Shown: piece by piece, positions 9,070 through 50,131 of the stretch
How positions within the stretch are numbered: position 1 is the stretch's first letter
Layout: every line of letters starts with the position of its first letter
DNA from: Opitutia bacterium
GTDB lineage: Bacteria; Verrucomicrobiota; Verrucomicrobiia; Opitutales; T3Sed10-336
NCBI GenBank assembly: GCA_050506795.1
Contig: JBJHCF010000031.1
Span: forward strand, 1 to 63,997
Direction: 5' to 3'
DNA length: 63,997 bases
Made by a program: the position numbers and the translations under genes
The notes under the pieces: model-generated
Seen by the model: only the letters and a program-made list of their open reading frames with translations
Told to the model about the DNA's origin: nothing
The model's database searches: none

Positions 9070-9145
9070 GCGCAACAATTGCTTGAACCCAACAGGCGTC
9101 TTCGCAAGCCTTCCAAGGGATTGAGGGTTAAGGGTATAGTTGAAC
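9070..9145 (+). other. attC-like site (degenerate)
   Basis: R'' GCGCAAC, arms TTGAACCC/GGGTTAA (extra G), R' GTTGAAC, ATG at 9151. Confidence 0.6.
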
Positions 9146-9267
9146 AATATATGAAATACACGATTTCTTCACTCTTAGTTCTTATCCTTGCCCTTTCGAA
9201 GACAGGCCTTATTAATGGACACTAAAGATCCCAATTTCTGGGTACTCCAAGTGATGTAGATAAAATC

Positions 9268-9786
9268 ATGAAACACTTATTTATTATTTATCTGGTTTGT
9301 TTTTCTACGGCGGCTCAGCTTTTGAGCGGTGCTCCTCAGACGAGTATGACATCATCAGTAAATGAACTTCCCATAGAGAAGTCACATTATCTTGAGATCG
9401 CATATGGGATAGTTGACGAAGATGTCGTCTCGATCACTACCGAAACTGTCGATCAGGTTACTGCTTCATTCCTGGAAAATGCTACGATACTTAGGATTGC
9501 CACATCACCCACAGACAGCGGCGCGTTTGAAGAAGTAGATAGGTATAAACTGGAGTTTCTCCTCACGGAACAGGATGATGGCCGAATTGAAACGCTGGTT
9601 GATTTTCGTTTGACCCAGGAAGGTCGGCATAGGGCAATCAATACGAGGGTACTGCTGAACGAATCCAAATGGTTTGTTCTATCGGGGCTTTCCAGTGTGA
9701 CCTCCGACGCCCCTCCCCTATCCTACATCACCGCATTGCGGATCGTTCCCAGGGAAAACAATTCATCCACAGAAAACTCGGAATAA
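9268..9786 (+). CDS. Hypothetical secreted protein
   Basis: Signal-peptide-like N-terminus MKHLFIIYLVCFSTAA; no family recognised. Confidence 0.6.
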   Translation: MKHLFIIYLVCFSTAAQLLSGAPQTSMTSSVNELPIEKSHYLEIAYGIVDEDVVSITTETVDQVTASFLENATILRIATSPTDSGAFEEVDRYKLEFLLTEQDDGRIETLVDFRLTQEGRHRAINTRVLLNESKWFVLSGLSSVTSDAPPLSYITALRIVPRENNSSTENSE

Positions 9787-9881
9787 CGGCGTCGGATTGC
9801 CGATCGGACGTTGGAGTTAAAACATGACAGATTCCGGGTGCCGATCCGGCGCGTATTACCAATACCGAAACACTGTTTTAA

Positions 9882-10391
9882 ATGCCCGAACACCTTTTTT
9901 TTCGCCAAGGAACCGAAAGTGATCTACCACAGATTACGGAAATATATAATCACTACGTCGTCCACACTGCCATTACGTTCGACATTGAACCCTTCTCTGT
10001 CGAGGATCGGAAGCGCAAATGGTTCGTGAATTACGATTCCGATGGGCCCTACCGACTGTTGGTCGCGATCCTGGGAGACAAGTTGGTCGGGTATGCCACC
10101 AGTAGTCGGTTCAAGGAAAAAGCGGCTTACGCCTCCTCGGTTGAAACGAGCATCTATTTGCGGCCGGATCAGAAACGACAGGGAATCGGCATACAACTGT
10201 ATTCACGCCTGCTCAACCTTCTCAGGTCCTGCGAGGTTCATCGAGCATACGGAGGCATTACACTTCCTAATGAGGCGTCGATTAATTTACATTTAAAGCT
10301 CGGTTTCAAGTCCGTTGGCACCCATAATGAGGTCGGATATAAATTCGGGAGGTACCATAGCGTACAGTGGTTTGAAAAGGCAATAAGATGA
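9882..10391 (+). CDS. GNAT N-acetyltransferase (YncA/phosphinothricin acetyltransferase-like)
   Basis: IYNHYV..TAITFD, VETSIYL, QGIG, PNEASINLH.KLGF..VG..VGYKFG. Confidence 0.9.
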   Translation: MPEHLFFRQGTESDLPQITEIYNHYVVHTAITFDIEPFSVEDRKRKWFVNYDSDGPYRLLVAILGDKLVGYATSSRFKEKAAYASSVETSIYLRPDQKRQGIGIQLYSRLLNLLRSCEVHRAYGGITLPNEASINLHLKLGFKSVGTHNEVGYKFGRYHSVQWFEKAIR

Positions 10392-10461
10392 CCGTCCTCT
10401 CCCCCTTTCTGGTCATTCGGGAACAAGCCGATTTCCAAATGGGCGGCTCGGGCATCCAAAT

Positions 10462-11160
10462 ATGACAGAAACAGGCCGACCGATGAAACAGCATCGTGTG
10501 AATGTTCCTACACAACAGAAATTACACTTTTTCCCCATTATCTTTATAGGTTGGGTCATGTTCATAGGGTGCTATATTATTTCTGAGGTCTTGCAGTGGA
10601 CGGACAAGACACGCGGGTTGACCAGCGCAATTTTTCACGCGATTCCTTACACTTTTGTTTTCGCGATGATTCCTTTTCCCTTAATGGTCCTTATCCTTTC
10701 CATAACACGACGAAGACGTATGAGCCTGATTCGTCGTATTTTGATTGTCACCTCACCGGTTATCGTGATAGGATTCCTAATGGTTGGTGGTTCTATTAAC
10801 TCCGCGTTCAATTCGGAGAGCCGTTTCGCAGCTATGATGGACTACCGGCTGCCAGAAACACCTGTTAATTTTAAGGCCTATCATTCTGGAGGTGGATTCG
10901 CTGATTATCTGGACATGTATTACTTTGAAACGAATCCGGATGAAGTGAAAAAGCTGTTGGATCTACGCCCATACCTTCTTCGAGATCTTCCGATGTCAGG
11001 ATCGCTTCCCATTGGGGGTGTTTCACCGCCACCCGGATGGCCGAATCCAGTGGAATGGGAAGGCTTGAAGGTTTTCGAGTTTCACGAGAGAACCTGGTTC
11101 TACTATATCTTGGTGGATGACAACCAGACCCAAGTGTTTGTCATAGCCGGGTGCATCTAG
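10462..11160 (+). CDS. Hypothetical membrane protein
   Basis: Three N-terminal hydrophobic segments plus a soluble C-terminal domain; start uncertain. Confidence 0.6.
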   Translation: MTETGRPMKQHRVNVPTQQKLHFFPIIFIGWVMFIGCYIISEVLQWTDKTRGLTSAIFHAIPYTFVFAMIPFPLMVLILSITRRRRMSLIRRILIVTSPVIVIGFLMVGGSINSAFNSESRFAAMMDYRLPETPVNFKAYHSGGGFADYLDMYYFETNPDEVKKLLDLRPYLLRDLPMSGSLPIGGVSPPPGWPNPVEWEGLKVFEFHERTWFYYILVDDNQTQVFVIAGCI

Positions 11161-18226: not shown

Positions 18227-19408
18227 ATGTCGAAGCAAACACCAGAACCTGATCACGGATCCTCCCACGGCAACCTTTCTTTCGGGATGCCCCAGGAAAG
18301 CGCCCCGCCCCCGGCTCTGCCGCCAAGAGTTCTTTTCTGGCTGAAAGTCGCGGGCATTGTGGCCGCTCTCTATTTCTTCATCGTCGGGGTGGGCGGCATG
18401 GGACATGCCTTCAAGCTTTTCGGGGTCGAGTTTGCGGAAAGGATTCTGACCGCCACGGCCAATCCATTTACCGGCCTGTTTATCGGAATCCTGGCCACCT
18501 CGCTGGTGCAAAGCTCCTCCACCTCGACCTCGATCATAGTGGGGATGGTGGCCGGAGGCGCTCTCTCGGTCGAGGGCGCCGTTTTCATGATCATGGGCGC
18601 CAATGTCGGCACCTCGATCACCAGCCTGCTGGTCTCCCTGGGCCACATTCATCGCCCCCAGGAGTTGCGAAGAGCCTTTTCGGCCGCGTCGGTTCACTGT
18701 TTCTTCAACCTGACCTGCGTCGCCATCCTCTTTCCGATCGAGATGGCCACCGGCTTTCTCGGTCGGACGGCCAAGGTCTGCGCCGACGCGTTCGCCGGAA
18801 TGGGCGGGATGCGATTGAGCAATCCTCTCAAAGCGGTTACGGAACCGTCCATCGAAGCCATCGCCTGGTTGGTCCAGGGTCACCCGATCATCATGCTGGT
18901 GGTGACGATCGCGCTCACCTACGGCATGCTTATCGCGATCGTCAAGCTGCTGCGCAGCCTGGTGCTGAAGAAACTGGAGTATTTCTTCGATACCCTTCTC
19001 TTCAAAACCTGGCAGAGAGCGATGCTTTTCGGTCTGTTGCTCACCTTCGCGGTGCAGACCAGTTCGGTGCCCACCGCTCTGGTGGTGCCTCTTGCCGGAG
19101 CCGGGGTCCTGCGTTTGATCCAGGTTTATCCTTTCTGCCTGGGCGCCAACATGGGCACCACCATGACCGCGATGCTGGCGGCTCTGGCCACGGGGCATCC
19201 CGCCGCGGTAGTCGCGGCATTTGCGCACCTGCTGTTCAACATCATTGGGATCGTTATGATCTGGACCATTCCCGCCATACGGGTAATTCCGCTGCGGGTG
19301 GCGGAGAAAATGGGCGATCTGGCATTTCGCAACCGGCTGGTGCCGGTCGTCGCTTTGGCGCTGATTTATTTCATTATTCCCGCACTCGTGTTACTAATAG
19401 TCCGTTAG
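18227..19408 (+). CDS. Na+/phosphate cotransporter family protein (NptA-like)
   Basis: GILATSLVQSSSTSTS, MGANVGTSIT, second repeat VQTSSV..LGANMGTT, AHLLFNI. Confidence 0.92.
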   Translation: MSKQTPEPDHGSSHGNLSFGMPQESAPPPALPPRVLFWLKVAGIVAALYFFIVGVGGMGHAFKLFGVEFAERILTATANPFTGLFIGILATSLVQSSSTSTSIIVGMVAGGALSVEGAVFMIMGANVGTSITSLLVSLGHIHRPQELRRAFSAASVHCFFNLTCVAILFPIEMATGFLGRTAKVCADAFAGMGGMRLSNPLKAVTEPSIEAIAWLVQGHPIIMLVVTIALTYGMLIAIVKLLRSLVLKKLEYFFDTLLFKTWQRAMLFGLLLTFAVQTSSVPTALVVPLAGAGVLRLIQVYPFCLGANMGTTMTAMLAALATGHPAAVVAAFAHLLFNIIGIVMIWTIPAIRVIPLRVAEKMGDLAFRNRLVPVVALALIYFIIPALVLLIVR

Positions 19409-19420
19409 GAGGAACCTTTC

Positions 19421-20113
19421 ATGTGGCGAAACCTTTTTAATCTTTTCCGAAAAGACACCTTATTCACCCAGGCTCTTCGTGAGTCCCACCAGATGCTCGA
19501 TATCGACCTGGAGATGTTCGAGGCATCCGTCGAATCCCTCCGCCGTTCGGATCAAGGCGCCGGAGCCATCCGAGTCAACCTCCGCGAAATGGACAAGGAG
19601 ATCAATCGATTCGAACGCGATGTGCGCGAGAAGGTGCTCACCCACCTCGCGGTCAGCGGGCCCAGCGATCTGGCTCACGGACTGGTCCTGGTCAGCATAA
19701 TTATCGACATCGAGCGCATCGGAGACTACGCCAAGAACATCTACGACCTGGCCCGATACCACCCTGAAAAACTGCACGGAGGGAGCATGGAGGATGTGGT
19801 CGCCGACGTTGAATCCAGGACAGCCAGTCTTTTCCGCGACATGGTGGTGGCCTTCCGCGAGAACGACCAGGACAAGGCGCGAGAGATCATGAAATCCTAC
19901 AAAGGCTCGCTTTCCACCGATTGCGAAAAAATCGTCGAGCGACTGGTGGCCGGGCAAGCTCCCGATCTTACCGCGGGCAACGCGGCGGCCATCGCGTTGT
20001 ACGTGCGTTATCTGAAGCGAATCGCCGGCCACTCCCGCAACATCGTCACCAGCGTCGTCAACCCGTTCCCTCGCATCGGATATCGGGAAAAGAAGGTCAA
20101 GAAGGAGTACTGA
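19421..20113 (+). CDS. PhoU domain protein
   Basis: DKEINRFERDVR..IIDIERIGDYAKNI and YLKRIAGHSRNI repeats; follows the Na/Pi transporter. Confidence 0.85.
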   Translation: MWRNLFNLFRKDTLFTQALRESHQMLDIDLEMFEASVESLRRSDQGAGAIRVNLREMDKEINRFERDVREKVLTHLAVSGPSDLAHGLVLVSIIIDIERIGDYAKNIYDLARYHPEKLHGGSMEDVVADVESRTASLFRDMVVAFRENDQDKAREIMKSYKGSLSTDCEKIVERLVAGQAPDLTAGNAAAIALYVRYLKRIAGHSRNIVTSVVNPFPRIGYREKKVKKEY

Positions 20114-30469: not shown

Positions 30470-31309
30470 TCATCCCCGGACACGGCTCAATTCCGACCGT
30501 CCCAAAAGACGTCGGCGCACGCGGTCTGAAACCTTCTCCAATCCTGTGATCAAAAGAACGATGCAAATAATCAAAGCCAGAGTATCCTCGTACCGGAGAA
30601 TACTGGTCGACAGGTTGAGTTCGAAGCCTAGTCCGCCGCCACCGTATACCCCAAGGGCGACCGCTGATCGCATATTGACGTCAAAGGCGTAGAACCAGTT
30701 GCCCAGGACTGATGGCGCACATTGGGGAAGGATGCCGTATCGAATCGTTTGCCACCTACTCGCGCCGATTGAGTCCAGACCTTCAACCGGTCCGGGTTCA
30801 ACGGACTCAATGGCATCGGCGAAAAGTTTGCCAAAAATTCCGATGGAACCGATCGCCAGCGAAACCATCGCCGCGAAGGGCCCGAATCCGATCGCGATGA
30901 GAAGAATCAGCAGCACGATAAAATTGGGTGTCGCGCGCTCGATGCCGAAGACCGCGCGTGTCACGCTGCCGATCCATGGATGCGGCGTCGTGTTGGCGGC
31001 CGCCAAAAGAGCGAGGCCAATGGAAAGACCGCCACCGAATAACGTTCCCAGAAAAGCCATGGCCACGGTTTCTCCGATGGAAGTCAACACCGCCGGCCGT
31101 TCGGTGAATATGGAGAAATTAGGAGGCAGCATTTCCGCGGCCAAAGCCCTGACAAACGGAAGATCGCGTATCAACTGCACCGGATTGAATTCCAGAACCG
31201 CGGCGGCACCTGTCAGAAACAGCAAAAACGCTCCCACGCCAATGAGGCGACGCGTACGCTTGCGCGAGGGATGTTCGCAACGCGGCAACAATTCCGAAAG
31301 CGCGGTCAT
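30470..31309 (-). CDS. phnE: Phosphonate ABC transporter permease PhnE
   Basis: ETVAMAFLGT, GKLFADAIE...GPVEG..SIGA, FDVNMRSA..LG..GGGGLG. Confidence 0.9.
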   Translation of the reverse strand: MTALSELLPRCEHPSRKRTRRLIGVGAFLLFLTGAAAVLEFNPVQLIRDLPFVRALAAEMLPPNFSIFTERPAVLTSIGETVAMAFLGTLFGGGLSIGLALLAAANTTPHPWIGSVTRAVFGIERATPNFIVLLILLIAIGFGPFAAMVSLAIGSIGIFGKLFADAIESVEPGPVEGLDSIGASRWQTIRYGILPQCAPSVLGNWFYAFDVNMRSAVALGVYGGGGLGFELNLSTSILRYEDTLALIICIVLLITGLEKVSDRVRRRLLGRSELSRVRG

Positions 31310-32124
31310 CGGAGCCCTCCATGATCGAGGATTCGTTTCCGCAAAAAGCGGGAAACCCGTTCGGCGCCGAAAACGAGGCCCAAGGTCACCAGGATCGCGG
31401 CCATAGCCCGCTCGTACTCCATCATGGCCATCGCATAGGTTAGCTCGTATCCGATTCCTCCCGCGCCCACCGCCCCCAGCAGGACCGAAGCACGAACGTT
31501 GATTTCAAAGCGGAGGAAAGTGTTGGCGATCAACGAAGGCAAAATTGCAGGAAAAACTGCATATCGGATGACCTGCCAACGCGTCGCCCCAACCGCCTCG
31601 ACGCTTTCGATGACTTCGGGCTCAATTTCCTCCACCGCATCGGCGATCAAGCGCCCCAGCATGCCGACACTGCCGATGGCGAGAGCAAGCACTCCGGGAG
31701 CCGGTCCCACACCCATGGCGGCCACCAACAACACCAGAATGATGATCTCGGGCAACGCACGCTCTATGCCGATCACCAGTCGCGCGGCGAAACGAAGGAA
31801 CGGCGAAGCCAGGTTCCCCGCCGCTGCCAAACCGAAAAAGAACGAAATGATCAACCCCAGGGGAGTCGCGACCAGCGCCAAAAAAACAGTGACCAACGCC
31901 GGCTCGACGAGGCCGGGAAGCGCACCCCAATCCGGCGGGAACATCAGTCGCAGAACGCCCAACCCCTCGCCGAAACCGGTAACCAACAGCATCAGGTCCA
32001 CATCACACAAGCGTGCGGCCACCACCACACAAACCGCCAGCGCCACAATCCAGGGAACCGATCGCAACCAGCGGTTTCGACCATAGGATTGAATCAGGAT
32101 TTCACGTTCCGTCGCCGCGCTCAT
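31306..32124 (-). CDS. phnE: Phosphonate ABC transporter permease PhnE
   Basis: RALPE, G.GP.PGVLAL, RFEINVRASVLLGAVGAGGIG. Confidence 0.9.
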   Translation of the reverse strand: MSAATEREILIQSYGRNRWLRSVPWIVALAVCVVVAARLCDVDLMLLVTGFGEGLGVLRLMFPPDWGALPGLVEPALVTVFLALVATPLGLIISFFFGLAAAGNLASPFLRFAARLVIGIERALPEIIILVLLVAAMGVGPAPGVLALAIGSVGMLGRLIADAVEEIEPEVIESVEAVGATRWQVIRYAVFPAILPSLIANTFLRFEINVRASVLLGAVGAGGIGYELTYAMAMMEYERAMAAILVTLGLVFGAERVSRFLRKRILDHGGLR

Positions 32125-32127
32125 CGC

Positions 32128-32970
32128 TTAAACCGAAACGGATGCCTGATTGGAGGAAGATTCCGCCTCACGAGCAGCTTCCCGCTTGATGTCGTCCAAT
32201 TCGTTCCCGTAAATCCGAGCCAGGACGGCGTCGCCGGTGTCGGGGGGGCCGTCATAAACCACGCGACCTTCACGTATTCCGATAAAACGAGTGCAATAAC
32301 CGGCCGCCAGAACCGGCTGGTGAAAGACCCCCAACACCGGAGACTGTTTCGCCAACGGCGCCAGCAGACGCATAATTCCCGAAGCGTTTCGAGGGTCCAG
32401 GCTGGAGACCGGTTCGTCAGCGAGGAAAAACCAGGGATCCTGATAGATCGCGCGGGCTATCGCCACCCGCTGCATCTCGCCGCCGCTGAGCTCACCCACA
32501 CGACGCGCAGCATGCTCTTCCACTCCCACCTGCCGCAGGGCCTCCCAGGCGGCCGCGGCCTGCCGGTCATTGAATCCGAGCACCCAACTCCGCAGCGGCG
32601 TCATGAATCCGAGTCGCCCCATCATCACGTTCTCCAGGACCGTCAACTGTTTGACCAGATTCAACCCTTGAAAAATGGTCCCCAGGCTTCGTCGCAACTC
32701 ACGCAAAGACGCGGGATTCATGATTGAAGTGTCGTATATCCGGCCCTCGGGAGTTCGCCAGATCACTTTTCCACCGCTCGGCTGTAAAAGCCCGAGCAAG
32801 GAACGCAACGTAAGCGATTTGCCGGCGCCGCTCGGCCCGAGTATGGCGACAAATTCTCCGGGGCCCACCTCAAAGGAAACCCCATCCAAAAGTTTCTTTC
32901 CATTGGGCAGGACCTTGATGATGCCGTCCACGGTCAGTCCGCGGGAGTTGGAATCGCTTAATGTCATCAT
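32128..32970 (-). CDS. phnC: Phosphonate ABC transporter ATPase PhnC
   Basis: GPSGAGKS, IFQ..NLV..LTVLENVMMGRLG, LSGGEMQRVAIARA, LADEPVSSLDP. Confidence 0.9.
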   Translation of the reverse strand: MMTLSDSNSRGLTVDGIIKVLPNGKKLLDGVSFEVGPGEFVAILGPSGAGKSLTLRSLLGLLQPSGGKVIWRTPEGRIYDTSIMNPASLRELRRSLGTIFQGLNLVKQLTVLENVMMGRLGFMTPLRSWVLGFNDRQAAAAWEALRQVGVEEHAARRVGELSGGEMQRVAIARAIYQDPWFFLADEPVSSLDPRNASGIMRLLAPLAKQSPVLGVFHQPVLAAGYCTRFIGIREGRVVYDGPPDTGDAVLARIYGNELDDIKREAAREAESSSNQASVSV

Positions 32971-32972
32971 TC

Positions 32973-33902
32973 TCAGCGAATCAGACGCATGTGTTCGACG
33001 TTGCGAGCGATCGACCGCAATTCGTTATACATCTCGTCTTCCCCCGGCAGATACACCAGGTCGCGGTCGGCGTATTGGCCCGATACCACAGCCCAGACTT
33101 CGGGAGCCCTCACAGGCAAGTCGACAAATGCCGATTGAATACGCATACGCAGTTCCTCCGAAAGCCCGCCTCGAACCGCGATGGCCCCGCTGGGAATCTT
33201 TGGAGACTCCCATATGACCCTCACATTCTCTTCTGAAATACGCCCATTTTCCATGAGACGGTTGTAGGCATTGACCGAAACCGCGGCCACATCCACCCGC
33301 CGTCCTCGAACGGTCAGGACCGACGCGCCGTGGTTCATGGCGAAAATCACCCGGCTGAAATGTTGTTCAGGGCGAATCCCGTGACTTTCCAGAAAAGCGC
33401 GCGGAATGAGGTGCCCCGAAGTCGATGCCGGATCCACAAAACTAAAGATCAACTCCGATCCGCGCTCGATGACGTCATCGACAGACCTAAGCCCGGTGTT
33501 CGGATGCGTGATCAGCAACGTGGTGTAAGCCCCGGGCCCATCCTCCACAGTCCCCCGCACCACGATCGCTTGCGCACCGGCCCGCTCGGAAGCGATGAGG
33601 TAGGCAAAAGGCGGGAGGTAGCAGACATCCAGCTTACGCGAGCGCATGGCCTCCACCGCCGGCGCATAGCTGCTGGTCTCCCGTAGGCGCACCGGCATAC
33701 CGAGCTCTTTTTCAAGATAGCCGCGCAACGCCTCGAACGAAGTCAGCACACGTTCCGGATCCTCATGCGAGGGAACAAAGCCCACCCGCAATTCCGTGAC
33801 CGGCGTTTCCTCATCACCCAGGTCGAACGCGTCCCGGGGCATCATGATCACCCATCCGGTCGCGGCGATGAAAATCAGACTGAACAGTATCTTGGTCACC
33901 AT
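32973..33902 (-). CDS. phnD: Phosphate/phosphite/phosphonate ABC substrate-binding protein PhnD
   Basis: LRVGFVP, Y...VEAM, FVDPASTSGHLIP, H..SV..V, W.SP.IP; start reassigned to MVTKILF. Confidence 0.9.
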   Translation of the reverse strand: MVTKILFSLIFIAATGWVIMMPRDAFDLGDEETPVTELRVGFVPSHEDPERVLTSFEALRGYLEKELGMPVRLRETSSYAPAVEAMRSRKLDVCYLPPFAYLIASERAGAQAIVVRGTVEDGPGAYTTLLITHPNTGLRSVDDVIERGSELIFSFVDPASTSGHLIPRAFLESHGIRPEQHFSRVIFAMNHGASVLTVRGRRVDVAAVSVNAYNRLMENGRISEENVRVIWESPKIPSGAIAVRGGLSEELRMRIQSAFVDLPVRAPEVWAVVSGQYADRDLVYLPGEDEMYNELRSIARNVEHMRLIR

Positions 33903-33904
33903 GG

Positions 33905-35530
33905 TCAAGCGGTCACCACCAGACTTCGAACCGCCCTGTCGGTTTGCCCGAACAGATCGGTTGTTTCCACCTCGATCGCGTACACACCTGCCGGAAGATC
34001 GGCGGGCAAACGGCTTTTCCACAGGTGACGGCAGGGTTGTGCCTGTGCCAACCGCCGGAAAGGTCTCTCCAAACTTTGACTCTCTTCCCGCATTTTCACG
34101 TAAAGCGGACAGGGCTCCATCGTCATTTCCATCGGCAGCCAATCCCCCTGATTCCCGAATCGAACGCGCACTTCCGACCGTTCCGAACCGCCGAAGACAT
34201 TGGCGAAAACCACGGTCTCTCCCAATTGCGATCGAAGAACCGATTCCGGGCAAACAATGTTGATTTGATAACCGGAATCCCGCCGCGAGGCTTTGTAGCG
34301 CAACGTGTAGCCATCACCGCGGAACCGGCATATGGTGTATCCGCGCGGAGCACCATCACGCATCGTGGCGTGCGGAACGCCGAGTTCGTCGGGTCCACCA
34401 CTCCACCAGGCGCCGCAGGTGGTGACATTTACCGAGTGGTGCAGCGGCTCACTTCCCTCCCAGCCATGCTCCGGTCCGAGGAAATTGTGTTCGTTCCAAT
34501 GGGTGTGGGCCGAGGTGGCGAAAAGAAGTCGACGATTACGCAAAGGCGCCAGCAAGGCTTCACGGTTGGTGACAAGGGTACGCGGACTTTCGCGTCCGCT
34601 GTCCAAAGGAATATGCATCACTAAAACAATCGGCTGATCCGGACTCAAGGTCCTGAGATCGTTCTCCACGAACGCCAGTTGAGCCGCGCTCACTTCGCCT
34701 TGGTAATCGTTGGTCGCGGGACCACCGCCCCAAACGACCGTATTGAGCACGATAAAGTGTACGGGGCCATAATTGAAGGCATAGTAATCCGGCCCGAAGT
34801 GAGCTTTATAACTATCCGCCGCATGGGTGTCATCCGCGGCGCCGAAATCAATGTCATGATTGCCGAAGAGATACCACATCGGCATACCGGCCTGTCCCAA
34901 CACCTTGCTGATGTCGCCGAAAAGGTCCGGACGATCGAAGACAATATCTCCAAGGCATAAAGAAAAAGCCGCACGACTCCGACGAAGCTCACTCACCAGA
35001 TCGTCCGCCAGGTAACGGATCTCACGCCGGTCGCGAACCTGCGGGTCGCCAAGGAACAGACAGGTGAAGTCCTCCGACTCCTGGTCTCTGATCAAAGGGA
35101 AATCAATGCGTTCAGGCAACGGTCCGGTTTTCGGCAAGCCTCCGCTATCGAGACCCGGAGAACCTTCCGGCGCGTGCACGTAATAAAAGCGAGGGGTATT
35201 CACCTCGGTCAATGGAGGTCTCCAGTTCCTGGGTTTAATGACAAAAAACACCGTGTGCGGATGATTCCGAAGCGGCAACGACCACTCCCCGCGGGACCCG
35301 GTGAGGACCACCTCTTCACCATTCGATACCGCGACGCCCGGGATGCCGGGGGAGTCAGGACCGTCTCCGGAGGACGCGTCATAAACCCGTCCTCCGGCCC
35401 ATACGGATTCCGATCCCGGCCGAGCCGCCAAGGAACGGGGGAACGTGCTTGCGGCAACCAGACCAATCCCACCGGCCACGGTCCGCCGCAATGCTTCACG
35501 TCGGCTAATCGGTTTGTCCATCGGATTCAT
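33905..35530 (-). CDS. Tat-exported calcineurin-like metallophosphoesterase with N- and C-terminal accessory domains
   Basis: SRREAL Tat motif; GIPGVAVSNG, GDPQ, LGDIVFD, GNHD, MHIP, AHTH, CGAWW, DGAPRGY. Confidence 0.9.
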   Translation of the reverse strand: MNPMDKPISRREALRRTVAGGIGLVAASTFPRSLAARPGSESVWAGGRVYDASSGDGPDSPGIPGVAVSNGEEVVLTGSRGEWSLPLRNHPHTVFFVIKPRNWRPPLTEVNTPRFYYVHAPEGSPGLDSGGLPKTGPLPERIDFPLIRDQESEDFTCLFLGDPQVRDRREIRYLADDLVSELRRSRAAFSLCLGDIVFDRPDLFGDISKVLGQAGMPMWYLFGNHDIDFGAADDTHAADSYKAHFGPDYYAFNYGPVHFIVLNTVVWGGGPATNDYQGEVSAAQLAFVENDLRTLSPDQPIVLVMHIPLDSGRESPRTLVTNREALLAPLRNRRLLFATSAHTHWNEHNFLGPEHGWEGSEPLHHSVNVTTCGAWWSGGPDELGVPHATMRDGAPRGYTICRFRGDGYTLRYKASRRDSGYQINIVCPESVLRSQLGETVVFANVFGGSERSEVRVRFGNQGDWLPMEMTMEPCPLYVKMREESQSLERPFRRLAQAQPCRHLWKSRLPADLPAGVYAIEVETTDLFGQTDRAVRSLVVTA

Positions 35531-35537
35531 CGCTGGT

Positions 35538-36410
35538 TCAAAATTCGTTATCCTGTGAACAGGCGCACGAGCTAATCGCCAACGTCTCCGTTTCAGCGAT
35601 CAACCGGCGATAGGATTCGACGGAATAATTCGGGCCGAACGCGAAAGGAGGCGTTTCGATACAGGGCACTCCATCAAAATCCATCGCCTCCATATTCTGA
35701 AAGACCCCAACCCAATCCACCAGCCCCCTGCCCGGCGCCAAATGCGAATCGCGATCACCGGCATTATCCGCCAAGTGAAACGCGATAATATCCTCGCCCA
35801 TTGCCTCAAAAAAGAGATGCGCGTTCTCGTGAGCCGCTACCAGAGCGTGACCGGTATCCAGGCAGAACCCAAGCCGCGCATGTCCGCAACGTTGCCGAAG
35901 CATCACAAAATGTTCCGGGTCCGAGCCAAACCGCCCCCCTTCCTTCCCGGGTAACATATTCTCCAACGCCAGGTTCATGCCCAAACGGTCCGCACGCGCT
36001 AACAACGTCGCCAGACTCTTCTCGATTTGCTCCAGAAAACGACCGATTCCTCTTTTCAAAGCGTCGCCCCGATAAGTTGATGGATGAAGAATGCCAACCG
36101 GGGCGCCCAATGCGGCCGCCCGTTCCATGGAACCTACAATCCTCACGACTGTTGCGGCCCGCTCTTCGTCATCAAACGCGGCAATATCGTCCTCGACCGC
36201 AAACGGCAGGTGGTAACTGCTAATCCACATCCCCGCCCGCTCGAGATCCGTCCGCATGCGCGCGAACTCCTTCGGTTCGGTGAGCGTGGAAAAATGGTTC
36301 TCACTTCCCTCCAGACAACGTATACCCGTCTCCTCAGACCAGATGCTTAAAGATTCCGGAAGTCTGGGGAAGTGGACGGTTGAAATGGAAAATTCAGGCG
36401 GCAAATTCAT
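35538..36410 (-). CDS. Sugar phosphate isomerase/epimerase (AP endonuclease 2 TIM barrel)
   Basis: S.HLPF, LALENM, CLDTGH, HLADN.G..D.HL.PG.G.VDW. Confidence 0.85.
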   Translation of the reverse strand: MNLPPEFSISTVHFPRLPESLSIWSEETGIRCLEGSENHFSTLTEPKEFARMRTDLERAGMWISSYHLPFAVEDDIAAFDDEERAATVVRIVGSMERAAALGAPVGILHPSTYRGDALKRGIGRFLEQIEKSLATLLARADRLGMNLALENMLPGKEGGRFGSDPEHFVMLRQRCGHARLGFCLDTGHALVAAHENAHLFFEAMGEDIIAFHLADNAGDRDSHLAPGRGLVDWVGVFQNMEAMDFDGVPCIETPPFAFGPNYSVESYRRLIAETETLAISSCACSQDNEF

Positions 36411-43222: not shown

Positions 43223-44431
43223 ATGTACCTTTCCACGCTCAGGAAACCAATTAGCACTAGAAGTGGCGGCGCGCCAGCCACCGGCATTCGATCTACTCAA
43301 ATAATTAGGTCGACAGATAAATCCATACGGACGGGAACGAGAATTCTTATGGCTGGAATAATCGCGATCCTGGCCACCGGCTGTGGGTCCTCCACGACGA
43401 GCCTGGAATGGCGGCTGACCACTGGAGACCCGGTGTCATCATCACCGGTCATTGCCCCTGATGGAAGGATCTACATCGGCTCGGAGGACTTCCATGTTCA
43501 TGCTGTGCTCCCAAATGGCACCAGACTTTGGACCTTTTCCACCAATGCCGAGGTGCGCGGTTCACCCGCGATCGGAGGCGACGGAACGATTTACGCGGGT
43601 TCGGCCGACGGCGTCCTCTACGCGCTATCGCCTTCGGGGACGGAGCGCTGGCGCTACGTTGCGGGCGTCGGACTACAGTCGTCGCCGGCACTGGCGGCCA
43701 ACGGCACAGTTTACATCGGTTGCCAGGGGGGACGCATACACGCCATAACCCCCCAAGGACGCGTGCTATGGAGGACCAATCTCGGTGGCTCCGTCGCCGC
43801 GACTGTTGCGATTGGCAACAACGGCGTCCTTTATGTCGGCACACGCACAGGAGATTTTTTCGCAATCAACACCGACGGCTCCCGGCGCTGGCATTACCAA
43901 GCGGACGGAGAAATTACGGCTTCCGCGGCCATCGGCGCACAGGGTCAGATTTATTTCGGCACTTGGGAAGGGACATTCCACGCATTGAGCCCTCGGGGTT
44001 CCGTGCTATGGACAAAATCAATCGGAGAGGCCATACGGGGCTCTCCCATAACGGGACCTGACGGAACCGTTTATTTCGGCGCGGACGATGGCCGGTTACA
44101 CGCACTGAATGCGGACGGCGGCGAACGCTGGACATTCGACGCCGGCTCAGGTATCCGCTCCGCGCCGGTTCTCGGAGCGGACGGAAGGCTTTTTGTCGGA
44201 GACCGAAGCGGCGCGTTTTGGGAAGTTAGCCCCGACGGCGAGGGGCGCCGCATCCTGACCGCTTCCTGGGAATTCGAGTCATCGCCGGCTTTAGGCCCGG
44301 ACGGGCGTTTGTACGTGGGCAACGGTGATTTTCGGCTCTACGCTTTGCGGGTATCCACCGCGCTGGCCGAGGCTCCGTGGCCAAAGTTCCGGGCCGACAA
44401 CGCGGGCACATCGAGATCACAGGCGCGGTGA
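43223..44431 (+). CDS. PQQ-like (BamB-type) beta-propeller repeat protein, probable lipoprotein
   Basis: Repeats SSPAIG.DGTIY.GS.DG.LYAL...G..RW; lipobox-like LATGC; start uncertain (possibly 43349). Confidence 0.85.
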   Translation: MYLSTLRKPISTRSGGAPATGIRSTQIIRSTDKSIRTGTRILMAGIIAILATGCGSSTTSLEWRLTTGDPVSSSPVIAPDGRIYIGSEDFHVHAVLPNGTRLWTFSTNAEVRGSPAIGGDGTIYAGSADGVLYALSPSGTERWRYVAGVGLQSSPALAANGTVYIGCQGGRIHAITPQGRVLWRTNLGGSVAATVAIGNNGVLYVGTRTGDFFAINTDGSRRWHYQADGEITASAAIGAQGQIYFGTWEGTFHALSPRGSVLWTKSIGEAIRGSPITGPDGTVYFGADDGRLHALNADGGERWTFDAGSGIRSAPVLGADGRLFVGDRSGAFWEVSPDGEGRRILTASWEFESSPALGPDGRLYVGNGDFRLYALRVSTALAEAPWPKFRADNAGTSRSQAR

Positions 44432-44456
44432 AACAGGAATCCGTGCGCCTCCTGTG

Positions 44457-45899
44457 TCACGGCCTGTCCCAGGGGAGAGAGTACGTCTTGATCCAGGTCA
44501 TTCCCTTCATGGCCTCAATCACGCCTTCTTTCTCGCCCAGGCCGGAGCTTTTGATCCCGCCGAACGGCGACCATTCGAGCCGATAACTCGGCTCGATGTT
44601 CACATTCACCGCGCCGGTTTCCAGCTCCGTGATCACACGTTGTATCGACGGCCAGTGGTCGCTCACGACTGCTCCCGAAAGCCCATAAGGGGTATCGTTG
44701 GCAATTTTGATCGCTTCATCGAGAGTCCTGAAGCGCATGATCGGAGCCACCGGGCCAAAAGTTTCGCAGGCCACCAGTTCCCAATCGTTACGCACATGAT
44801 CCAGAACCGTTGGCGCGTAGATCGCGCGGTCCCGCCGGTGACCGGTCAACAGGCGGGCCCCGCGGTCCAGGGAATTCCGGACCCTGGCTTCCACCAATCG
44901 AGCCGCATCTTCCGTTATCATCGCCCCCATTTGCGTTTCGCGGTCGAAAGGGTCTCCGTACTTGATCCCGGATACCCGTTCCCGCAGAGCCTCCGAAAAA
45001 TTGTCGGCGATATCCTCGTGAACCAGAATCCGGCGAATGGCACTACAGCGCTGTCCACCATTCTTAAAAACTCCTGCCACTGCGATCATAGCGGCTTCAT
45101 CCGGATCCGCATCCGCCAGGACCAGAAGCGCCGAACTGCCTCCAAGCTCCAACACCAGACGTTTGTAACCCGCTCGTTCAGCAATACGTCGGCCGACAGC
45201 GGTGCCGCCGGTAAAGGTGACCATCTCCACCAGTTCGCTGGTTACAAGCGTGTCGGCCACTTCCTCGTCATCACCGCAAATCACATTCAGCATATCCGGC
45301 GGAGCCCCGCATTCCAGACAGAGACGCCCGAAGTAGAAAGCGGTCAATGGGGTCCGACGGGACGGCTTCAATACGACGGCGTTGTTGGTCGCGATCGCCG
45401 GGGCTATCTTGTGCACCACTTGATTAAGCGGGTGATTGAAAGGCGTGATCGCGGCAATCAAGTTGAAAGGCTGCCGCATGGTATAAATCCGCCGATGACG
45501 TCCGCCCGCGGAAACGTCACAGGGAAAAACTTCGGAATCGTCTTCCAGGCTTCGAACCGCGGCGAAACGCAACACATCGGTCGCCCGCTTAACTTCGCAT
45601 GTCGTATCCTGGCGGCAAAGTCCAGATTCCGAGGTAATTAAAAGGCTGATAAAATCCGCTTCTTCATCAATCCGCTCTGCCAAGCGATAAAGCAAACTCG
45701 AACGTTCATACCGGGACAAGGTCATGCGCGCGTCGCGTGTGCGTCTCAGGATTTGCTCCGTTTGCTCGCGCCCAACAACGGACACGCGTCCGGCCCGGTT
45801 GCCCGTTTGCGGATTGAAGATCTCCAGCCAGCGATCTTCGGTCTCCTCCCTCCCGCCTGTAATGGTTCCAAATTCCATGAATTCCAACTCGCTTGTCAT
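44457..45899 (-). CDS. phnY: Phosphonoacetaldehyde dehydrogenase
   Basis: ALDH motifs AITPFNHPLNQV.HKIAPAIATNN, FTGG, LELGG, GQRCSA, ETFGP, PFGGIK.SGLG.KEGV; abuts phnA. Confidence 0.9.
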   Translation of the reverse strand: MTSELEFMEFGTITGGREETEDRWLEIFNPQTGNRAGRVSVVGREQTEQILRRTRDARMTLSRYERSSLLYRLAERIDEEADFISLLITSESGLCRQDTTCEVKRATDVLRFAAVRSLEDDSEVFPCDVSAGGRHRRIYTMRQPFNLIAAITPFNHPLNQVVHKIAPAIATNNAVVLKPSRRTPLTAFYFGRLCLECGAPPDMLNVICGDDEEVADTLVTSELVEMVTFTGGTAVGRRIAERAGYKRLVLELGGSSALLVLADADPDEAAMIAVAGVFKNGGQRCSAIRRILVHEDIADNFSEALRERVSGIKYGDPFDRETQMGAMITEDAARLVEARVRNSLDRGARLLTGHRRDRAIYAPTVLDHVRNDWELVACETFGPVAPIMRFRTLDEAIKIANDTPYGLSGAVVSDHWPSIQRVITELETGAVNVNIEPSYRLEWSPFGGIKSSGLGEKEGVIEAMKGMTWIKTYSLPWDRP

Positions 45900-47141
45900 C
45901 TATCGAACGAGGGTTCCGTTGCAGAGAAAATCGAGAATGTCGTAATTAGGAGTTTCTCCGGTTTGAAGACGACTCCGGTAAGAATCCTGCAAACGTCGAT
46001 TGAATATCATGGGCACCGCCTGTTCATGCAGACCGCCATGTGAACGCAGGCCCGTGGAAACCGAGGAAAGATCGTGCCACTCGGGAGTTCTTCCAAGAAC
46101 CGTGTCCCGGCCGCTCAACACCACCAGATCGCCGATTCGGTCCCCGGGCAGGCGAAAGCGCGCTTCCGCTTCCGCACGATCCAGAACAAGATCAATGCCT
46201 TCCAGACTCTCCAGAAATCTCTCAGCGGGAACGACTTGTTCCGGATGTAAATAAACGGTGGCAAAAGAGCCCAATGCCCCGTGATGCACGACGTAAGGGT
46301 CCGTGATCGGCAGAATTACACGAGCACTGGTCAAACCGCTATCGTGCAGCAGCGATTCGAGGTATTGAACCCTGGGTGAGCCATCCGGCTGCGTTTTTTG
46401 GTTCATCCCGTGATCGGCTGTGATTCCCAGAAACACATCCTGACCATCAATTTCGCCCAAAGCACGGTCAATCCGAGCATAAAAATCCCTGGCTTCCGCC
46501 GCCTCGGGAGCATGCTTGTGTTGCACATAATCAGTGGTGCTCAAGTAAAGAAAGTCCGGCCGATATTCTTGCAACAGCCAGCTTCCGGCTTCAATCCCGT
46601 AAACACTGCATTCCGGATCGTAAACCCCCGGATTGGGACGCCCGATCTTCTCGGTCACCCGTTCCACCCCGTTTTCTTCCAGGGTTGTTTCATGAGCCTT
46701 TTCCACCGAAAAGCAAATGCCGTTTCGCAAATCCTTACCGAGAAGTCGGCGCAGCTTGTCTTTGGCGGTAACCACGGCCGCGGAACGCCCTGCTTGGCTG
46801 AAGGCCGAAAGCGCCGTCGGGCAACGCAGGTATTCCGGATCATTCATCATAACCTCGCGGTCCCTTTGCCGATCGTAATAAAAATTGCCGCAGATTCCAT
46901 TGATCGAGGGAGGTACTCCGGTAACCAGCGCCAAATTGTTCGGGTTGGTAAAAGAGGGTATCACCGATTTCGCGATGCCCTCCGATCCGTCGCGACAGAT
47001 TTTCCGCAGGTTCGGCATCACGTCGCGCGCCGCATCCAAGTACTCGGGAGCTGTCCCGTCGAGACAAATGAACACCACCGGTTTCTCCGGAAGGTTATAT
47101 GTGCGCTGGTTCACCGTCACGGTGTTCAAGGTCGACTTCAT
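45900..47141 (-). CDS. phnA: Phosphonoacetate hydrolase
   Basis: ICLDG, PSFTNPNN, GICGN, YLSTTDYVQHK, TADHGM, ILPITDPYVVHHGALGS, LRSHGG. Confidence 0.95.
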   Translation of the reverse strand: MKSTLNTVTVNQRTYNLPEKPVVFICLDGTAPEYLDAARDVMPNLRKICRDGSEGIAKSVIPSFTNPNNLALVTGVPPSINGICGNFYYDRQRDREVMMNDPEYLRCPTALSAFSQAGRSAAVVTAKDKLRRLLGKDLRNGICFSVEKAHETTLEENGVERVTEKIGRPNPGVYDPECSVYGIEAGSWLLQEYRPDFLYLSTTDYVQHKHAPEAAEARDFYARIDRALGEIDGQDVFLGITADHGMNQKTQPDGSPRVQYLESLLHDSGLTSARVILPITDPYVVHHGALGSFATVYLHPEQVVPAERFLESLEGIDLVLDRAEAEARFRLPGDRIGDLVVLSGRDTVLGRTPEWHDLSSVSTGLRSHGGLHEQAVPMIFNRRLQDSYRSRLQTGETPNYDILDFLCNGTLVR

Positions 47142-47296
47142 AACGAAAAAGGGCGTATACACGGCATAAGCACCGTATCCGCATCACTGTGGATCTATCG
47201 GGACATCGATTCCAAGGGCAAGACAAATATTCCTATAGAGAAATTTTATTTCTCCTCAAGAAACCATCCCGCGGCCGCCATTGTCACCTGATCCAC

Positions 47297-47857
47297 CTAG
47301 GCCCGAGCCCCTGAAAAAACGCACAGCACCTTGGCCGTTCGTTTTCCCGGATTGAGCAGACGATGCTTTTCCGTGGCGTCGAAATAGGCGCATTGGCCCT
47401 TTCTCAAACAAAAACGCTCCAGTCCGTATTCAAGTTCCACGGTTCCCTCAATTACGATGAGAAATTCTTCCCCCTCGTGTGGAAGGGCTTCCTGACGCGG
47501 TTCCCCCGGAGGGACTTCCAACATTAGCGGTTCCATCAACCGCGCATGCCTTGTTGCCGCCAACGAACGATAAACGATATCGGAGTTGGGGCGATCGCGG
47601 TCGACCAACGGACCATCCGCGGAAGAACTCAGGACAATCTTCTTTTTTTCATCAATACCTGCTACTAACTCTGAAAATGTGACGCCCAGCCCTTCCGCAA
47701 TTCTCCCCAGTGCAACCAGGGATGGGGTCACCCGGAAGTTCTCGACCTTTGAAAGCACGCTTTGAGTGAGTTGACTGCGCTCGGCAAGTTGCCCCAGGGT
47801 CATCCCCCTCGTTTTTCGGATCTCGCGAATTCGTTGTGCCAGGAATACCAAGTTCAT
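47297..47857 (-). CDS. XRE-family HTH regulator with cupin domain
   Basis: IREIRK.RGMTL.QLA......S.LSKVEN..VTPS; HEGEEF..V.EG; GQCAYFD...H. Confidence 0.92.
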   Translation of the reverse strand: MNLVFLAQRIREIRKTRGMTLGQLAERSQLTQSVLSKVENFRVTPSLVALGRIAEGLGVTFSELVAGIDEKKKIVLSSSADGPLVDRDRPNSDIVYRSLAATRHARLMEPLMLEVPPGEPRQEALPHEGEEFLIVIEGTVELEYGLERFCLRKGQCAYFDATEKHRLLNPGKRTAKVLCVFSGARA

Positions 47858-47946
47858 CCCAAAGTTATGTTGCTTCACCAAGATTGCACCCGTTGCTGAA
47901 GAATAACAACCCCCGAATCAAGGGTATGTTATGGCGGAGTCAGTCT

Positions 47947-49116
47947 TTATCGAAACGGTTGAATCGCCACCCGAAGAACATTTCTATTCCGAATGGCGTA
48001 GGCGAAAGCATCCTCGATGCGTTCCAGGGGAAAGGTCTTCCCAACCACATGGGAAAAGGGAAACCGGTGTTGGAAACGCTGCAAGAAGCGCAATGCCGCC
48101 AGCAAATCTCTCGGCGTGTAGTTGTGAAGCCCCCTCAAACACAGCAGTCGAGTGGTCACCGTTTGCAAGTCGATTTCGGCCAAAGCGCCGGGAAAAACAC
48201 ACCCAGCAAGGACATAGCGACCGCCGATCTTCAAGGCACGAATCCCATCCGCCACCGCGGCCGGTTGACCGCAAACCTCGATGGCGGCATCGAAGCCGTA
48301 CGGTCCGGCCACCTCACGGGCAACCGCATCCAGATCGCTTCCGCCTTCGCCAATCAAACAAGTATGGGTCGCTCCGAACACCTCGGCCATTGCCAACCGC
48401 TCCGCATTGGTGTCCGTCACCAAAACAGCTCGACACCCAGCCGTAGACGCCATGGCGGCCGCGCAAAGCCCCAGCAGGCCGGCACCCTGGATCAAAACCG
48501 CATCGCCGTTTTGCAAATCAGCGGTACGCTGCGCCGCGGCGACCGTAGCCAAGGCACAATTCGCGAACACCGTTTCGTTGAACCCAAGATCGTCCGGAAG
48601 CCGGTAGAGCGTTGATCCAGCGGCTAAATGCAGGTATTCGGCAAATCCTCCGTTCAGGCGTGGAAGGACGTCCATGGATTCGTGCCCATACTTGAACAAT
48701 CGGGTGCACTTTTGCGGAACTCCGTCACTGCACGGGAAACAGTGACCGCAATGAGCCCCCAGACTCCAGGTTATACGGTCCCCCGGCGCCAGCGACTTTC
48801 CAGCGGAATCCCGTTCCAATCCGGTTCCCAAGCGAACCACAACCCCACACGTTTCATGTCCCAGGATCAAAGGTTTTTCCGGAATGCGACGCCCCTCGTA
48901 GGTGTGAAGGTCGGAGCCGCAAATCGCACTGCAAGCCACCCGCACAATCGCTTCTCCAGGACCCGGCGGAGTCATCTTCACACGAGTCAATGTCAGTCGA
49001 CGCGTCTCGGGATGAAACACCGCCGCACGGCAGGTTTCGGGAAGGTTCGGTAGGGCGCTGGGACCTGATCCCGTGCTTTCATTTGGCCCATCAAGGTCGA
49101 TTTCGGTACGGTTCAT
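47947..49116 (-). CDS. Zn-dependent alcohol dehydrogenase, phosphonate-catabolism-associated (TIGR03366/HpnZ-like)
   Basis: ICGSDLH, LGHE, CGHC..C..G.PQKC..L.KYGHE, ANCA.AT, GAGLLGL, G.VFPG, GLHNY. Confidence 0.8.
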   Translation of the reverse strand: MNRTEIDLDGPNESTGSGPSALPNLPETCRAAVFHPETRRLTLTRVKMTPPGPGEAIVRVACSAICGSDLHTYEGRRIPEKPLILGHETCGVVVRLGTGLERDSAGKSLAPGDRITWSLGAHCGHCFPCSDGVPQKCTRLFKYGHESMDVLPRLNGGFAEYLHLAAGSTLYRLPDDLGFNETVFANCALATVAAAQRTADLQNGDAVLIQGAGLLGLCAAAMASTAGCRAVLVTDTNAERLAMAEVFGATHTCLIGEGGSDLDAVAREVAGPYGFDAAIEVCGQPAAVADGIRALKIGGRYVLAGCVFPGALAEIDLQTVTTRLLCLRGLHNYTPRDLLAALRFLQRFQHRFPFSHVVGKTFPLERIEDAFAYAIRNRNVLRVAIQPFR

Positions 49117-49309
49117 TATTGCCTTTTGAGAAAGAATTATTCCTTTTTGTCAATTCACATTCCGTCGGCGAACCTTCGGCATGCGACGACGAACATGCCT
49201 GTAGGCGCAAATCTTCATCTCCTTCCAAGCGTCGAGCCGACAACGGATCGGCATTACGATCAATCCCGACCTTGATTCATCGCTCCGCTCAAGTAACAAT
49301 CCCGGTGTC

Positions 49310-50131
49310 ATGATTTACCGCGATATTCAGAACACCCGCGTTCCCGCTCTCGGCTTTGGCACCTTTCGCTTACTGGGCGACGTCTGTCGCAAACAGGTAC
49401 GCAAGGCCCTGGAGGCCGGATACCGGCACATCGACACCGCCCGGGTTTACGACAACGAGGAGGCAGTCGGCCAGGGAATCAGTGAATCGGGAGTGGACCG
49501 GTCTGAGATTTTCCTGACCTCCAAGGTCTGGATCGACGATCTGGAACCGGTAAAGGTCCGGCAGTCCACCGATAAGAGCCTCCGACTCCTGAAAACCGAT
49601 TATCTCGACCTCTACCTCATCCACTGGCCGAGCGACCGTTTTCCCATGGACGCCACCCTGGAAGCGCTGCAGGAGATGCAGACGGCGGGAAAGATTCGTC
49701 ACCTCGGCGTCAGCAACTTCCCGCCGGCCTATTTTCAACGGGCCATTGAAATCGCCCCGATATTCACCAATCAGGTCGAGTACCATCCGCTTCTGGGACA
49801 GAAGCGGCTGCTGGAACTGGCCCGCGAGCACGGGGTCCTGCTGACCGCCTACAGTCCGCTGGCCCAGGGCGACGTGCTGAAGGAACCGGTCCTGAAAGAA
49901 GTCGGCGCCAAACACGGCAAAAACGCCGCCCAGGTCTCCCTGCGGTGGCTCCTGCAACAGGACAACGTCGCCGCGATTCCCCGCAGCAGCAGTGAGAAAA
50001 ACCTTCACGCCAACTTCGATATCTTCGATTTCGAACTCGACGCCGAAGATCTGGAAAAAATCGAGCGCCTCCCGAAAAACGTCCGCACCATCAACCCCGC
50101 CTTCGCCCCCGACTGGGAGGACGAGGAGTGA
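49310..50131 (+). CDS. Aldo/keto reductase
   Basis: LGFGT, GYRHIDTA..Y.NE, TSKVW, DLYLIHWP, GVSNF, AYSPL, IPRS. Confidence 0.93.
   Translation: MIYRDIQNTRVPALGFGTFRLLGDVCRKQVRKALEAGYRHIDTARVYDNEEAVGQGISESGVDRSEIFLTSKVWIDDLEPVKVRQSTDKSLRLLKTDYLDLYLIHWPSDRFPMDATLEALQEMQTAGKIRHLGVSNFPPAYFQRAIEIAPIFTNQVEYHPLLGQKRLLELAREHGVLLTAYSPLAQGDVLKEPVLKEVGAKHGKNAAQVSLRWLLQQDNVAAIPRSSSEKNLHANFDIFDFELDAEDLEKIERLPKNVRTINPAFAPDWEDEE

Follow-up and report, generated by a model that had tools for sequence, protein, structure and literature searches.

The locus described here raises a question of supply: from which substrate, and by which enzyme, would phosphonoacetaldehyde be delivered to PhnY and PhnA when no transaminase is encoded beside them? 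The window, by which we mean the whole stretch of 63,997 nucleotides analyzed (contig JBJHCF010000031.1 of an Opitutia bacterium), carries at 44457–49116 four open reading frames (ORFs), all on the minus strand, which encode a zinc-dependent alcohol dehydrogenase (ADH), a regulator, PhnA and a PhnY-type aldehyde dehydrogenase (ALDH). None of the four is an aminotransferase. An initial annotation had drawn attention both to this co-orientation of phnA and phnY with an HpnZ-like zinc dehydrogenase and a regulator, and to the missing transaminase, and on both points it was correct. We consider it likely that the four-gene cluster converts 2-hydroxyethylphosphonate (HEP) into phosphonoacetaldehyde, phosphonoacetate and finally acetate and inorganic phosphate, all three steps being deduced from family membership and gene context. 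The ADH would then be the entry enzyme.

The ADH gene (49116..47947, minus strand) encodes a protein of 389 residues with an N-terminal tail of about 24 residues. The domains ADH_N (PF08240, 82.7 bits) and ADH_zinc_N (PF00107, 77 bits) indicate the architecture of a medium-chain zinc-dependent ADH. Its best NCBIfam model is TIGR03366 (HpnZ_proposed), with 325.2 bits against a cut-off of 328.1, i.e., 3 bits under, while the next-best family, threonine dehydrogenase (Tdh), reaches 134.7 bits and thus lies 190 bits below. Among solved structures it matches generic zinc ADHs and Tdh alone, at about 100 bits. The family to which it seems to belong was described by the initial annotation as poorly characterized, a statement overtaken by the work of Piazza et al. 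(Protein Sci, Sept 2026; PMC13576164), who named the pf00107 subfamily PbfG. The PbfG of Cellulosimicrobium protaetiae (WP_154797266) catalyzes the NAD-dependent transformation of HEP to phosphonoacetaldehyde with a kcat of 9.9 s-1, a KM of 0.10 mM and a kcat/KM of 88,500 M-1 s-1, and its coupling to PhnX leads to the release of phosphate (PMC13576164). Its activity on isethionate is four orders of magnitude weaker, and no appreciable activity was reported with 2-aminoethylphosphonate (AEP), threonine, ethanol, 1-propanol or glycolate (PMC13576164).

The two family names can be brought together by way of a third protein. A protein search of a plasmid collection returned WP_284687237, encoded on the Chondrinema litorale plasmid NZ_CP111047.1 and included in Table S2 of PMC13576164. 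Because this Table S2 member scores 359.6 bits on TIGR03366, PbfG and TIGR03366 are, judged by sequence, one family. The window ADH shares 39% amino acid identity with it over 348 residues (E value 5e-84), in line with the mean identity of 40.7% among the PbfG sequences of Table S2 (PMC13576164), and the corresponding proteins of two relatives, loci L015 and L014, score 335.7 and 309.7 bits, respectively, on the same model. The designation TIGR03366 does not occur in the main text of PMC13576164, and a literature search for "HpnZ" retrieved no paper giving the family another treatment; one preprint employs hpnZ as a marker gene.

The primary structure of the window ADH contains the catalytic zinc ligands C66, H87 and C187, equivalent to Cys45, His66 and Cys166 of the published enzyme, as well as the structural-zinc cysteines C123, C126, C129 and C137. 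All of these ligands are invariant in the 16 aligned homologues and are kept in at least 80 of the 82 family rows. The residues of PbfG proposed to contact HEP, taken from an AlphaFold3 model, are Ser47, Arg56, His124 and Asn298 (PMC13576164), and their counterparts in the window ADH are S68, R77, H145 and N332. The correspondence was established by constant spacing and through homologues, rather than by direct alignment to WP_154797266: C66, S68, R77, H87, H145 and C187 show a constant offset of +21 from the published residues and do not vary among the 16 aligned homologues, while Asn298 and Arg288 were placed at N332 and T322 (adjoined by R323), respectively, via two homologues having the full spacing of the published enzyme. 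R77, H145 and N332 are each conserved in at least 81 of the 82 family rows and in every gene-context group. By comparison, the three paralogues encoded in the same genome have P, L and M at position 77 and V, V and T at position 332, and one of the three keeps H145. At position 322 the window's clade has Thr and 63 of the 82 rows have Arg. The GAGxxG motif and D235, which in a Rossmann fold take part in NAD binding, are likewise invariant in the 16 aligned homologues.

In a quick maximum-likelihood tree, the window ADH groups with L013–L015, from metagenome-assembled genomes (MAGs) of Verrucomicrobia/Opitutia, with an approximate likelihood-ratio support (SH-aLRT) of 99, and the 82 family rows, the C. 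litorale PbfG included, are split from the three own-genome paralogues with a support of 100; the outgroup is thin, consisting of these three paralogues, the C. litorale branch is long and one row (L021) is mis-extended. The window ADH is accordingly predicted, from its sequence, to be a PbfG-family enzyme, and to name it a PbfG-type HEP dehydrogenase appears more fitting than "threonine dehydrogenase-like".

The remaining enzymes of the cluster are those that would consume phosphonoacetaldehyde. The phnA gene (47162..45900, minus strand) encodes phosphonoacetate hydrolase; its start codon is uncertain, the ORF opening with GTG and similarity beginning at residue 13. The product has an equivalog-level match to TIGR02335 (489.4 bits; cut-off 407.55) and, among solved structures, matches the phosphonoacetate hydrolases 1ei6 (417 bits) and 3szy (413 bits), the next match being at 32 bits. 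The stretch PSFTNPNN is identical to that of 1ei6, and its Thr residue is presumably the nucleophile. The phnY-type gene (45899..44457, minus strand) abuts phnA and encodes a putative phosphonoacetaldehyde dehydrogenase, whose best model, by 177 bits, is TIGR03250 (593.5 bits; cut-off 635.65). Its best match among solved structures is 4i3t (408 bits; next 270 bits), which we take to be the PhnY of Sinorhizobium meliloti, the entry title saying only aldehyde dehydrogenase. The orthologue at L015 shares 70% identity with the window PhnY and scores 641.9 bits on TIGR03250. Each of the two proteins is present as a single copy in the whole genome, with the next ALDH at 342 bits.

An answer to the question of supply also depends on what else the genome encodes. 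The host assembly comprises 4.94 Mb in 82 contigs and is 97.8% complete. The initial annotation had raised a phnW gene, or an amine oxidase, elsewhere in the genome as a competing source of substrate for PhnY. In whole-genome searches, neither was found: the best matches to PhnW were 37 bits (TIGR02326; cut-off 400.8) and 60 bits (TIGR03301; cut-off 360.8), and the best match to an HpnW/PbfD-type amine oxidase was 50 bits (cut-off 285). Family searches of the whole genome gave a best score of 37 bits for PhnX, and no match to the phosphoenolpyruvate (PEP) mutase or to PhnJ of the carbon–phosphorus (C–P) lyase. Because PhnW, PhnX, the amine oxidase, C–P lyase and PEP mutase were all undetected, the pathway is best read as catabolic and the cluster as the only recognizable route of C–P cleavage predicted in this genome. 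The ADH would similarly be its only recognizable supplier of phosphonoacetaldehyde, a statement that covers the families searched; a PbfA-type lyase, which forms phosphonoacetaldehyde from hydroxy-aminoethylphosphonate, lies outside them, and this counts against our assignment.

It is here that a second explanation enters, in which PhnY and PhnA are fed from elsewhere, either by uptake of phosphonoacetaldehyde or phosphonoacetate or by an unrecognized enzyme such as a PbfA-type lyase, and the ADH serves to buffer the aldehyde, running in the reductive direction that thermodynamics favors. Reduction is indeed the quicker direction for the two published HEP dehydrogenases, with an equilibrium toward HEP (PMC13576164), and the phnDCEE importer encoded elsewhere in the window, described below, could import other phosphonates. 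Set against this are the failure to find PhnW, HpnW/PbfD, PhnX or PEP mutase in a genome of this completeness, the waste of substrate that would follow if an aldehyde sink competed with PhnY within one cluster, and the published observation that pbfG occurs almost exclusively in degradative clusters (PMC13576164). We regard this explanation as decidedly unlikely.

The gene context of the ADH was compared in 80 loci kept from other species-representative genomes, each encoding a relative of the ADH with 41–66% identity in the best tblastn segment. PhnA and ALDH neighbors were scored by tblastn (E value ≤1e-10), and many of the loci are short contigs, so that absences are weak evidence. The closest relatives came from Verrucomicrobia/Opitutia MAGs. 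PhnA lies beside the ADH in 22 loci and an ALDH of any type in 19, comprising a PhnY-type enzyme (46–70% identity) in 13 and an ALDH resembling betaine-aldehyde dehydrogenase (31% identity to the window PhnY) in six (L032, L033, L034, L035, L048 and L050). Since PhnA and/or an ALDH adjoins the ADH in 24 of the 80 loci, across phyla, the association exceeds chance. The order ADH-regulator-PhnA of the window recurs in L013 and L014, the nearest relatives, and L015 has the order MFS-PhnA-PhnY-ADH, in which MFS denotes a carrier of the major facilitator superfamily. PhnX is a neighbor in six loci (representative, 352 bits) and a PgtP/GlpT-like MFS carrier of the organophosphate:phosphate-antiporter type in 28; the latter and the published AEP permease AepP are members of one transporter family (PMC8316502). 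Within the window's own phylum, an ADH match at E ≤1e-60 was obtained in six of 401 sampled genomes, that of the window being counted. PhnA is present in three of the other five (G234, G327, G330, G369 and G353), and in G234 and G369 some 1.4 kb separate it from the ADH. Such a sporadic distribution fits gain by horizontal transfer.

These data bear on whether the ADH is simply an ordinary threonine or polyol dehydrogenase, unrelated to phnA and phnY and next to them by accident. Tdh models do match the protein, at 128–135 bits, and its best solved relatives are generic zinc ADHs and Tdh. TIGR03366, however, stands 190 bits above Tdh, the adjacency recurs in the 24 loci just mentioned, and R77 and N332 are specific to the family and absent from the paralogues of the same genome. 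An accidental neighborhood therefore seems to us highly improbable.

The preferred pathway, from HEP to acetate and phosphate, can be laid out as follows. In the first step, the ADH would bind the hydroxyl of HEP on the catalytic zinc (C66, H87 and C187), with the phosphonate held by R77, H145, N332 and S68, and pass the hydride to NAD+. The published equilibrium favors HEP (PMC13576164), and HEP oxidation would need a forward pull; this would be supplied in the second step by PhnY, which would oxidize phosphonoacetaldehyde with NAD+, presumably irreversibly. In the third step PhnA would hydrolyze the C–P bond of phosphonoacetate. The XRE/cupin protein encoded between the ADH and PhnA would control the cluster by way of a small ligand, and HEP would enter via the phnDCEE importer 10.5 kb away. 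All three of these steps had been proposed in the initial annotation; the HEP oxidation reported in PMC13576164, together with the signature residues of the window ADH, lends the predicted sequence of reactions support.

Several considerations weigh against this reading. The activity of the window ADH is a prediction from its sequence, and the residue mapping depends on spacing and one other member of Table S2. Both TIGR03366 and TIGR03250 were matched just below their curated cut-offs, and at the position equivalent to Arg288 the window's clade carries T322. Co-transcription, the ligand of the regulator and the substrate of the importer are all inferred. In the wider family, 43 of the 80 loci, many of them short contigs, have no PhnA, ALDH, PhnX or SauS-like neighbor, and seven have coenzyme A (CoA)-type partners instead, such that the family context is not uniform.

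This mixed context leaves some room for a different substrate, i.e., another hydroxylated phosphonate such as hydroxypropyl- or dihydroxyethyl-phosphonate, or a sulfonate such as isethionate, with PhnY and PhnA acting on the matching aldehyde and acid. A SauS-like acylating (sulfo)acetaldehyde dehydrogenase, together with citrate-synthase-domain proteins, adjoins the ADH in seven loci, and genes for tripartite ATP-independent periplasmic (TRAP) transporters do so in five; the deviation at position 322 and the trace activity of PbfG on isethionate (PMC13576164) point the same way. The four substrate-contact residues are nevertheless kept in all context groups, the equivalog-level match of PhnA means that the product must be a C2 phosphonate acid, and the published PbfG prefers HEP to isethionate by a factor of 10^4 (PMC13576164). 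We consider a substrate other than HEP unlikely.

Between the ADH gene and phnA lies the predicted regulator of the cluster (47881..47297, minus strand; 194 residues, start codon uncertain), with an XRE-type helix-turn-helix (HTH_3, residues 18–72) and a cupin domain (Cupin_2, residues 120–189) in a PuuR-like architecture. It has 30% identity (E value 3e-24) with the 194-residue XRE regulator encoded directly upstream of the C. litorale pbfG, and tblastn placed a homologue (25–81% identity) beside the ADH in six of the 80 loci, from Verrucomicrobia, Latescibacterota and Planctomycetota. It likely senses a small ligand and controls the cluster accordingly. Its recurrence beside pbfG across phyla goes beyond PMC13576164, where regulators are drawn as grey arrows alone and in whose main text the word "cupin" does not occur.

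Candidate sites for such control were sought in the spacers. A conserved block (49117..49162, minus strand), a candidate promoter/operator, immediately precedes the ADH start codon; its alignment with L013 and L014 has 36 invariant columns, most of them in the last ~45 nucleotides, and includes TTGACA. The spacer between the regulator and phnA contains a perfect 7+3+7 palindrome found by script, GAGAAATAAAATTTCTC (47238..47254, no strand assigned), as a candidate operator. Upstream of the XRE-pbfG operon of C. litorale there are two copies of the palindrome TTTTCTTATTAAGAAAA (L093:6193-6421), and in L013 and L014 TTTTCTTAT closely precedes the ADH start. It is possible that the GAGAAATAAAATTTCTC, TTTTCTTATTAAGAAAA and TTTTCTTAT sites are operator half-sites of the XRE/cupin regulator. 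TTTCTYAW as a general operator word was rejected: L065, L067 and L073 carry the regulator and yet have no upstream copy, the word or its complement not being found in L065 or L073, while its one occurrence in L067 falls within a predicted ORF. A promoter and terminator scan of 44000–49600 was uninformative, with no promoter-like sites and seven terminator-like sites against 7.4 expected.

How HEP would reach the cytoplasm is suggested by the transporter genes phnD-phnC-phnE-phnE, on the same strand and 10.5 kb away, which the initial annotation had missed. They belong to a set of six tightly packed minus-strand genes at 30470–36410, in which genes for two putative phosphoesterases come first: an AP_endonuc_2 TIM-barrel protein (36410..35538; Pfam; weak match to the CbiR phosphodiesterase, 41.6 bits, cut-off 105), a metallophosphoesterase of 541 residues (35530..33905; Pfam), whose stop codon is 2 nucleotides from the phnD start, PhnD (33902..32973; TIGR01098, 187 bits, cut-off 112), PhnC (32970..32128; 222 bits, cut-off 266) and two PhnE proteins (32124..31306 and 31309..30470; 236.8 and 232.4 bits, respectively, cut-off 216.7). 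The group looks like a phosphorus-scavenging operon joining esterases to a phosphonate-type importer. A GlpT/AepP-like MFS carrier of the kind common beside pbfG in relatives was not found in the genome, in a search that had the L015 protein as its sole query and lacked a positive control, and because of this HEP would be expected to enter via phnDCEE (30470..33902), a candidate uptake system with a presumed tie to the pbfG cluster. At 18227–20113 the window holds further genes of the phosphate economy, one for a Na/Pi symporter and, after it, one for a PhoU-domain protein.

It is tempting to speculate further that the XRE/cupin protein is a dedicated sensor of HEP or phosphonoacetaldehyde travelling with pbfG across phyla, that the organism is a specialist living on HEP as its only phosphonate and importing it through phnDCEE, and that the phosphoesterases of the phnDCEE operon release HEP bound by ester linkages in glycans or lipids. 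We hold this to be rather doubtful; if true, it would provide a first regulator and, for bound HEP, a first chain of the type "de-esterify, import, cleave".

Among the relatives, other gene arrangements were observed. Seven loci (L040, at 4597–11089, L042, L065, L073, L076, L078 and L090) are without PhnA, PhnY and PhnX, and have the SauS-like acylating aldehyde dehydrogenase (495 bits; cut-off 600) with one or two proteins resembling citryl-CoA lyase or bearing a citrate-synthase domain; a haloacid dehalogenase (HAD) hydrolase is present in two of the seven, and a GlpT-like MFS carrier in two. These clusters may represent a CoA-dependent route from phosphonoacetaldehyde. In L014 (9054–11011), a nearest relative of the window, two citrate-synthase-like genes follow PhnA, and PhnY is absent. 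In the six loci with the ALDH resembling betaine-aldehyde dehydrogenase, that enzyme is paired with PhnA/PbfG, and the one representative scanned (L032) scores 442 bits on TIGR01804 versus 245 bits on TIGR03250. Eight loci carry sulfatase-family genes beside the ADH (L014, at 3675–5396, L030, L043, L044, L045, L057, L062 and L085); they match arylsulfatase models and, more weakly, the phosphonate/sulfate ester hydrolase PehA (130 bits, L014), and might free esterified HEP. The five loci with TRAP genes, situated directly upstream of the ADH, form a tight clade of Spirochaetia MAGs (L059, L071, L074, L077 and L079), and PhnA, PhnY and PhnX are absent from them.

The pbfG cluster of the window is flanked by two plus-strand genes, for a beta-propeller protein (43223–44431) and an aldo-keto reductase (49310–50131). 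The divergent reductase was rejected as a member of the cluster, being near the ADH in just one of the 80 loci. At 4912–7826 the window also carries genes for an IS66-family transposase (504 residues) and a DDE_Tnp_1 transposase fragment, both within a stretch of lower GC content (about 51% at 8–12 kb).

The combination proposed here is not without precedent. According to PMC13576164, pbfG clusters with phnX or with phnY-phnA, phnW and pbfD being often missing from such clusters, and its Table S2 contains pbfG with phnY and phnA, and without phnW or pbfD, in three Verrucomicrobiota, one planctomycete, one actinomycete and two Gemmatimonadota; there, this combination is tabulated rather than assayed. 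With the family, its substrate and the very same gene combination in print since Sept 2026, the locus has little discovery value and is a further example rather than a new pathway. Its use lies in annotation, in that the genome can be read as that of a phosphonate consumer with HEP as its only recognizable route to C–P cleavage, which fits the argument of PMC13576164 that HEP is an environmentally relevant source of phosphorus. Three details deserve attention: the XRE/cupin regulator that recurs beside pbfG, the importer that is used, and the variant clusters of the CoA type in relatives.

Of the known systems, the PhnW-PhnA-PhnY pathway of S. meliloti (PhnY, 4i3t, by our assumption; PhnA, 3szy) has its last two steps, and the enzymes performing them, in common with the window. 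The entry enzyme of the window, however, is a dehydrogenase instead of the transaminase PhnW, and for this reason an alcohol, HEP, is predicted as the substrate in place of the amine AEP. The HEP dehydrogenases of the PhpC type (pf00465) catalyze the same reaction as PbfG and have the same kinds of partner genes, but are of an unrelated fold and, in the published pair, have a kcat/KM about 300-fold lower (PMC13576164). The PbfG of C. protaetiae shares with the window ADH the Cys/His/Cys of the catalytic zinc, all four structural-zinc cysteines and the Arg/His/Asn/Ser contacts to the phosphonate; the window ADH differs in its N-terminal tail of ~24 residues, an insertion of ~10 residues near residue 260 and T322 at the Arg288 equivalent; the partner of the C. 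protaetiae enzyme is PhnX, and Table S2 marks a second cluster gene that, the column being ambiguous, is either phnW or pbfD (PMC13576164). The PbfG of C. litorale, which passes TIGR03366, has 39% identity with the window ADH and is preceded by an XRE regulator of 194 residues homologous to that of the window, whereas it lacks the four structural cysteines, all kept in the window ADH, and is followed by a PhnX-like HAD hydrolase (TIGR03351, 213 bits) and not by PhnA and PhnY. The closest systems are the clusters of Rubritalea squalenifaciens, Brevifollis gellanilyticus and Verrucomicrobium sp. BvORR106 in Table S2 of PMC13576164, compared by gene list rather than by sequence or order, which belong to the phylum of the window's closest gene relatives and have the same three enzymes with no phnW or pbfD in the cluster. 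In the window, an XRE/cupin regulator lies between pbfG and phnA, and the cluster contains no transporter.

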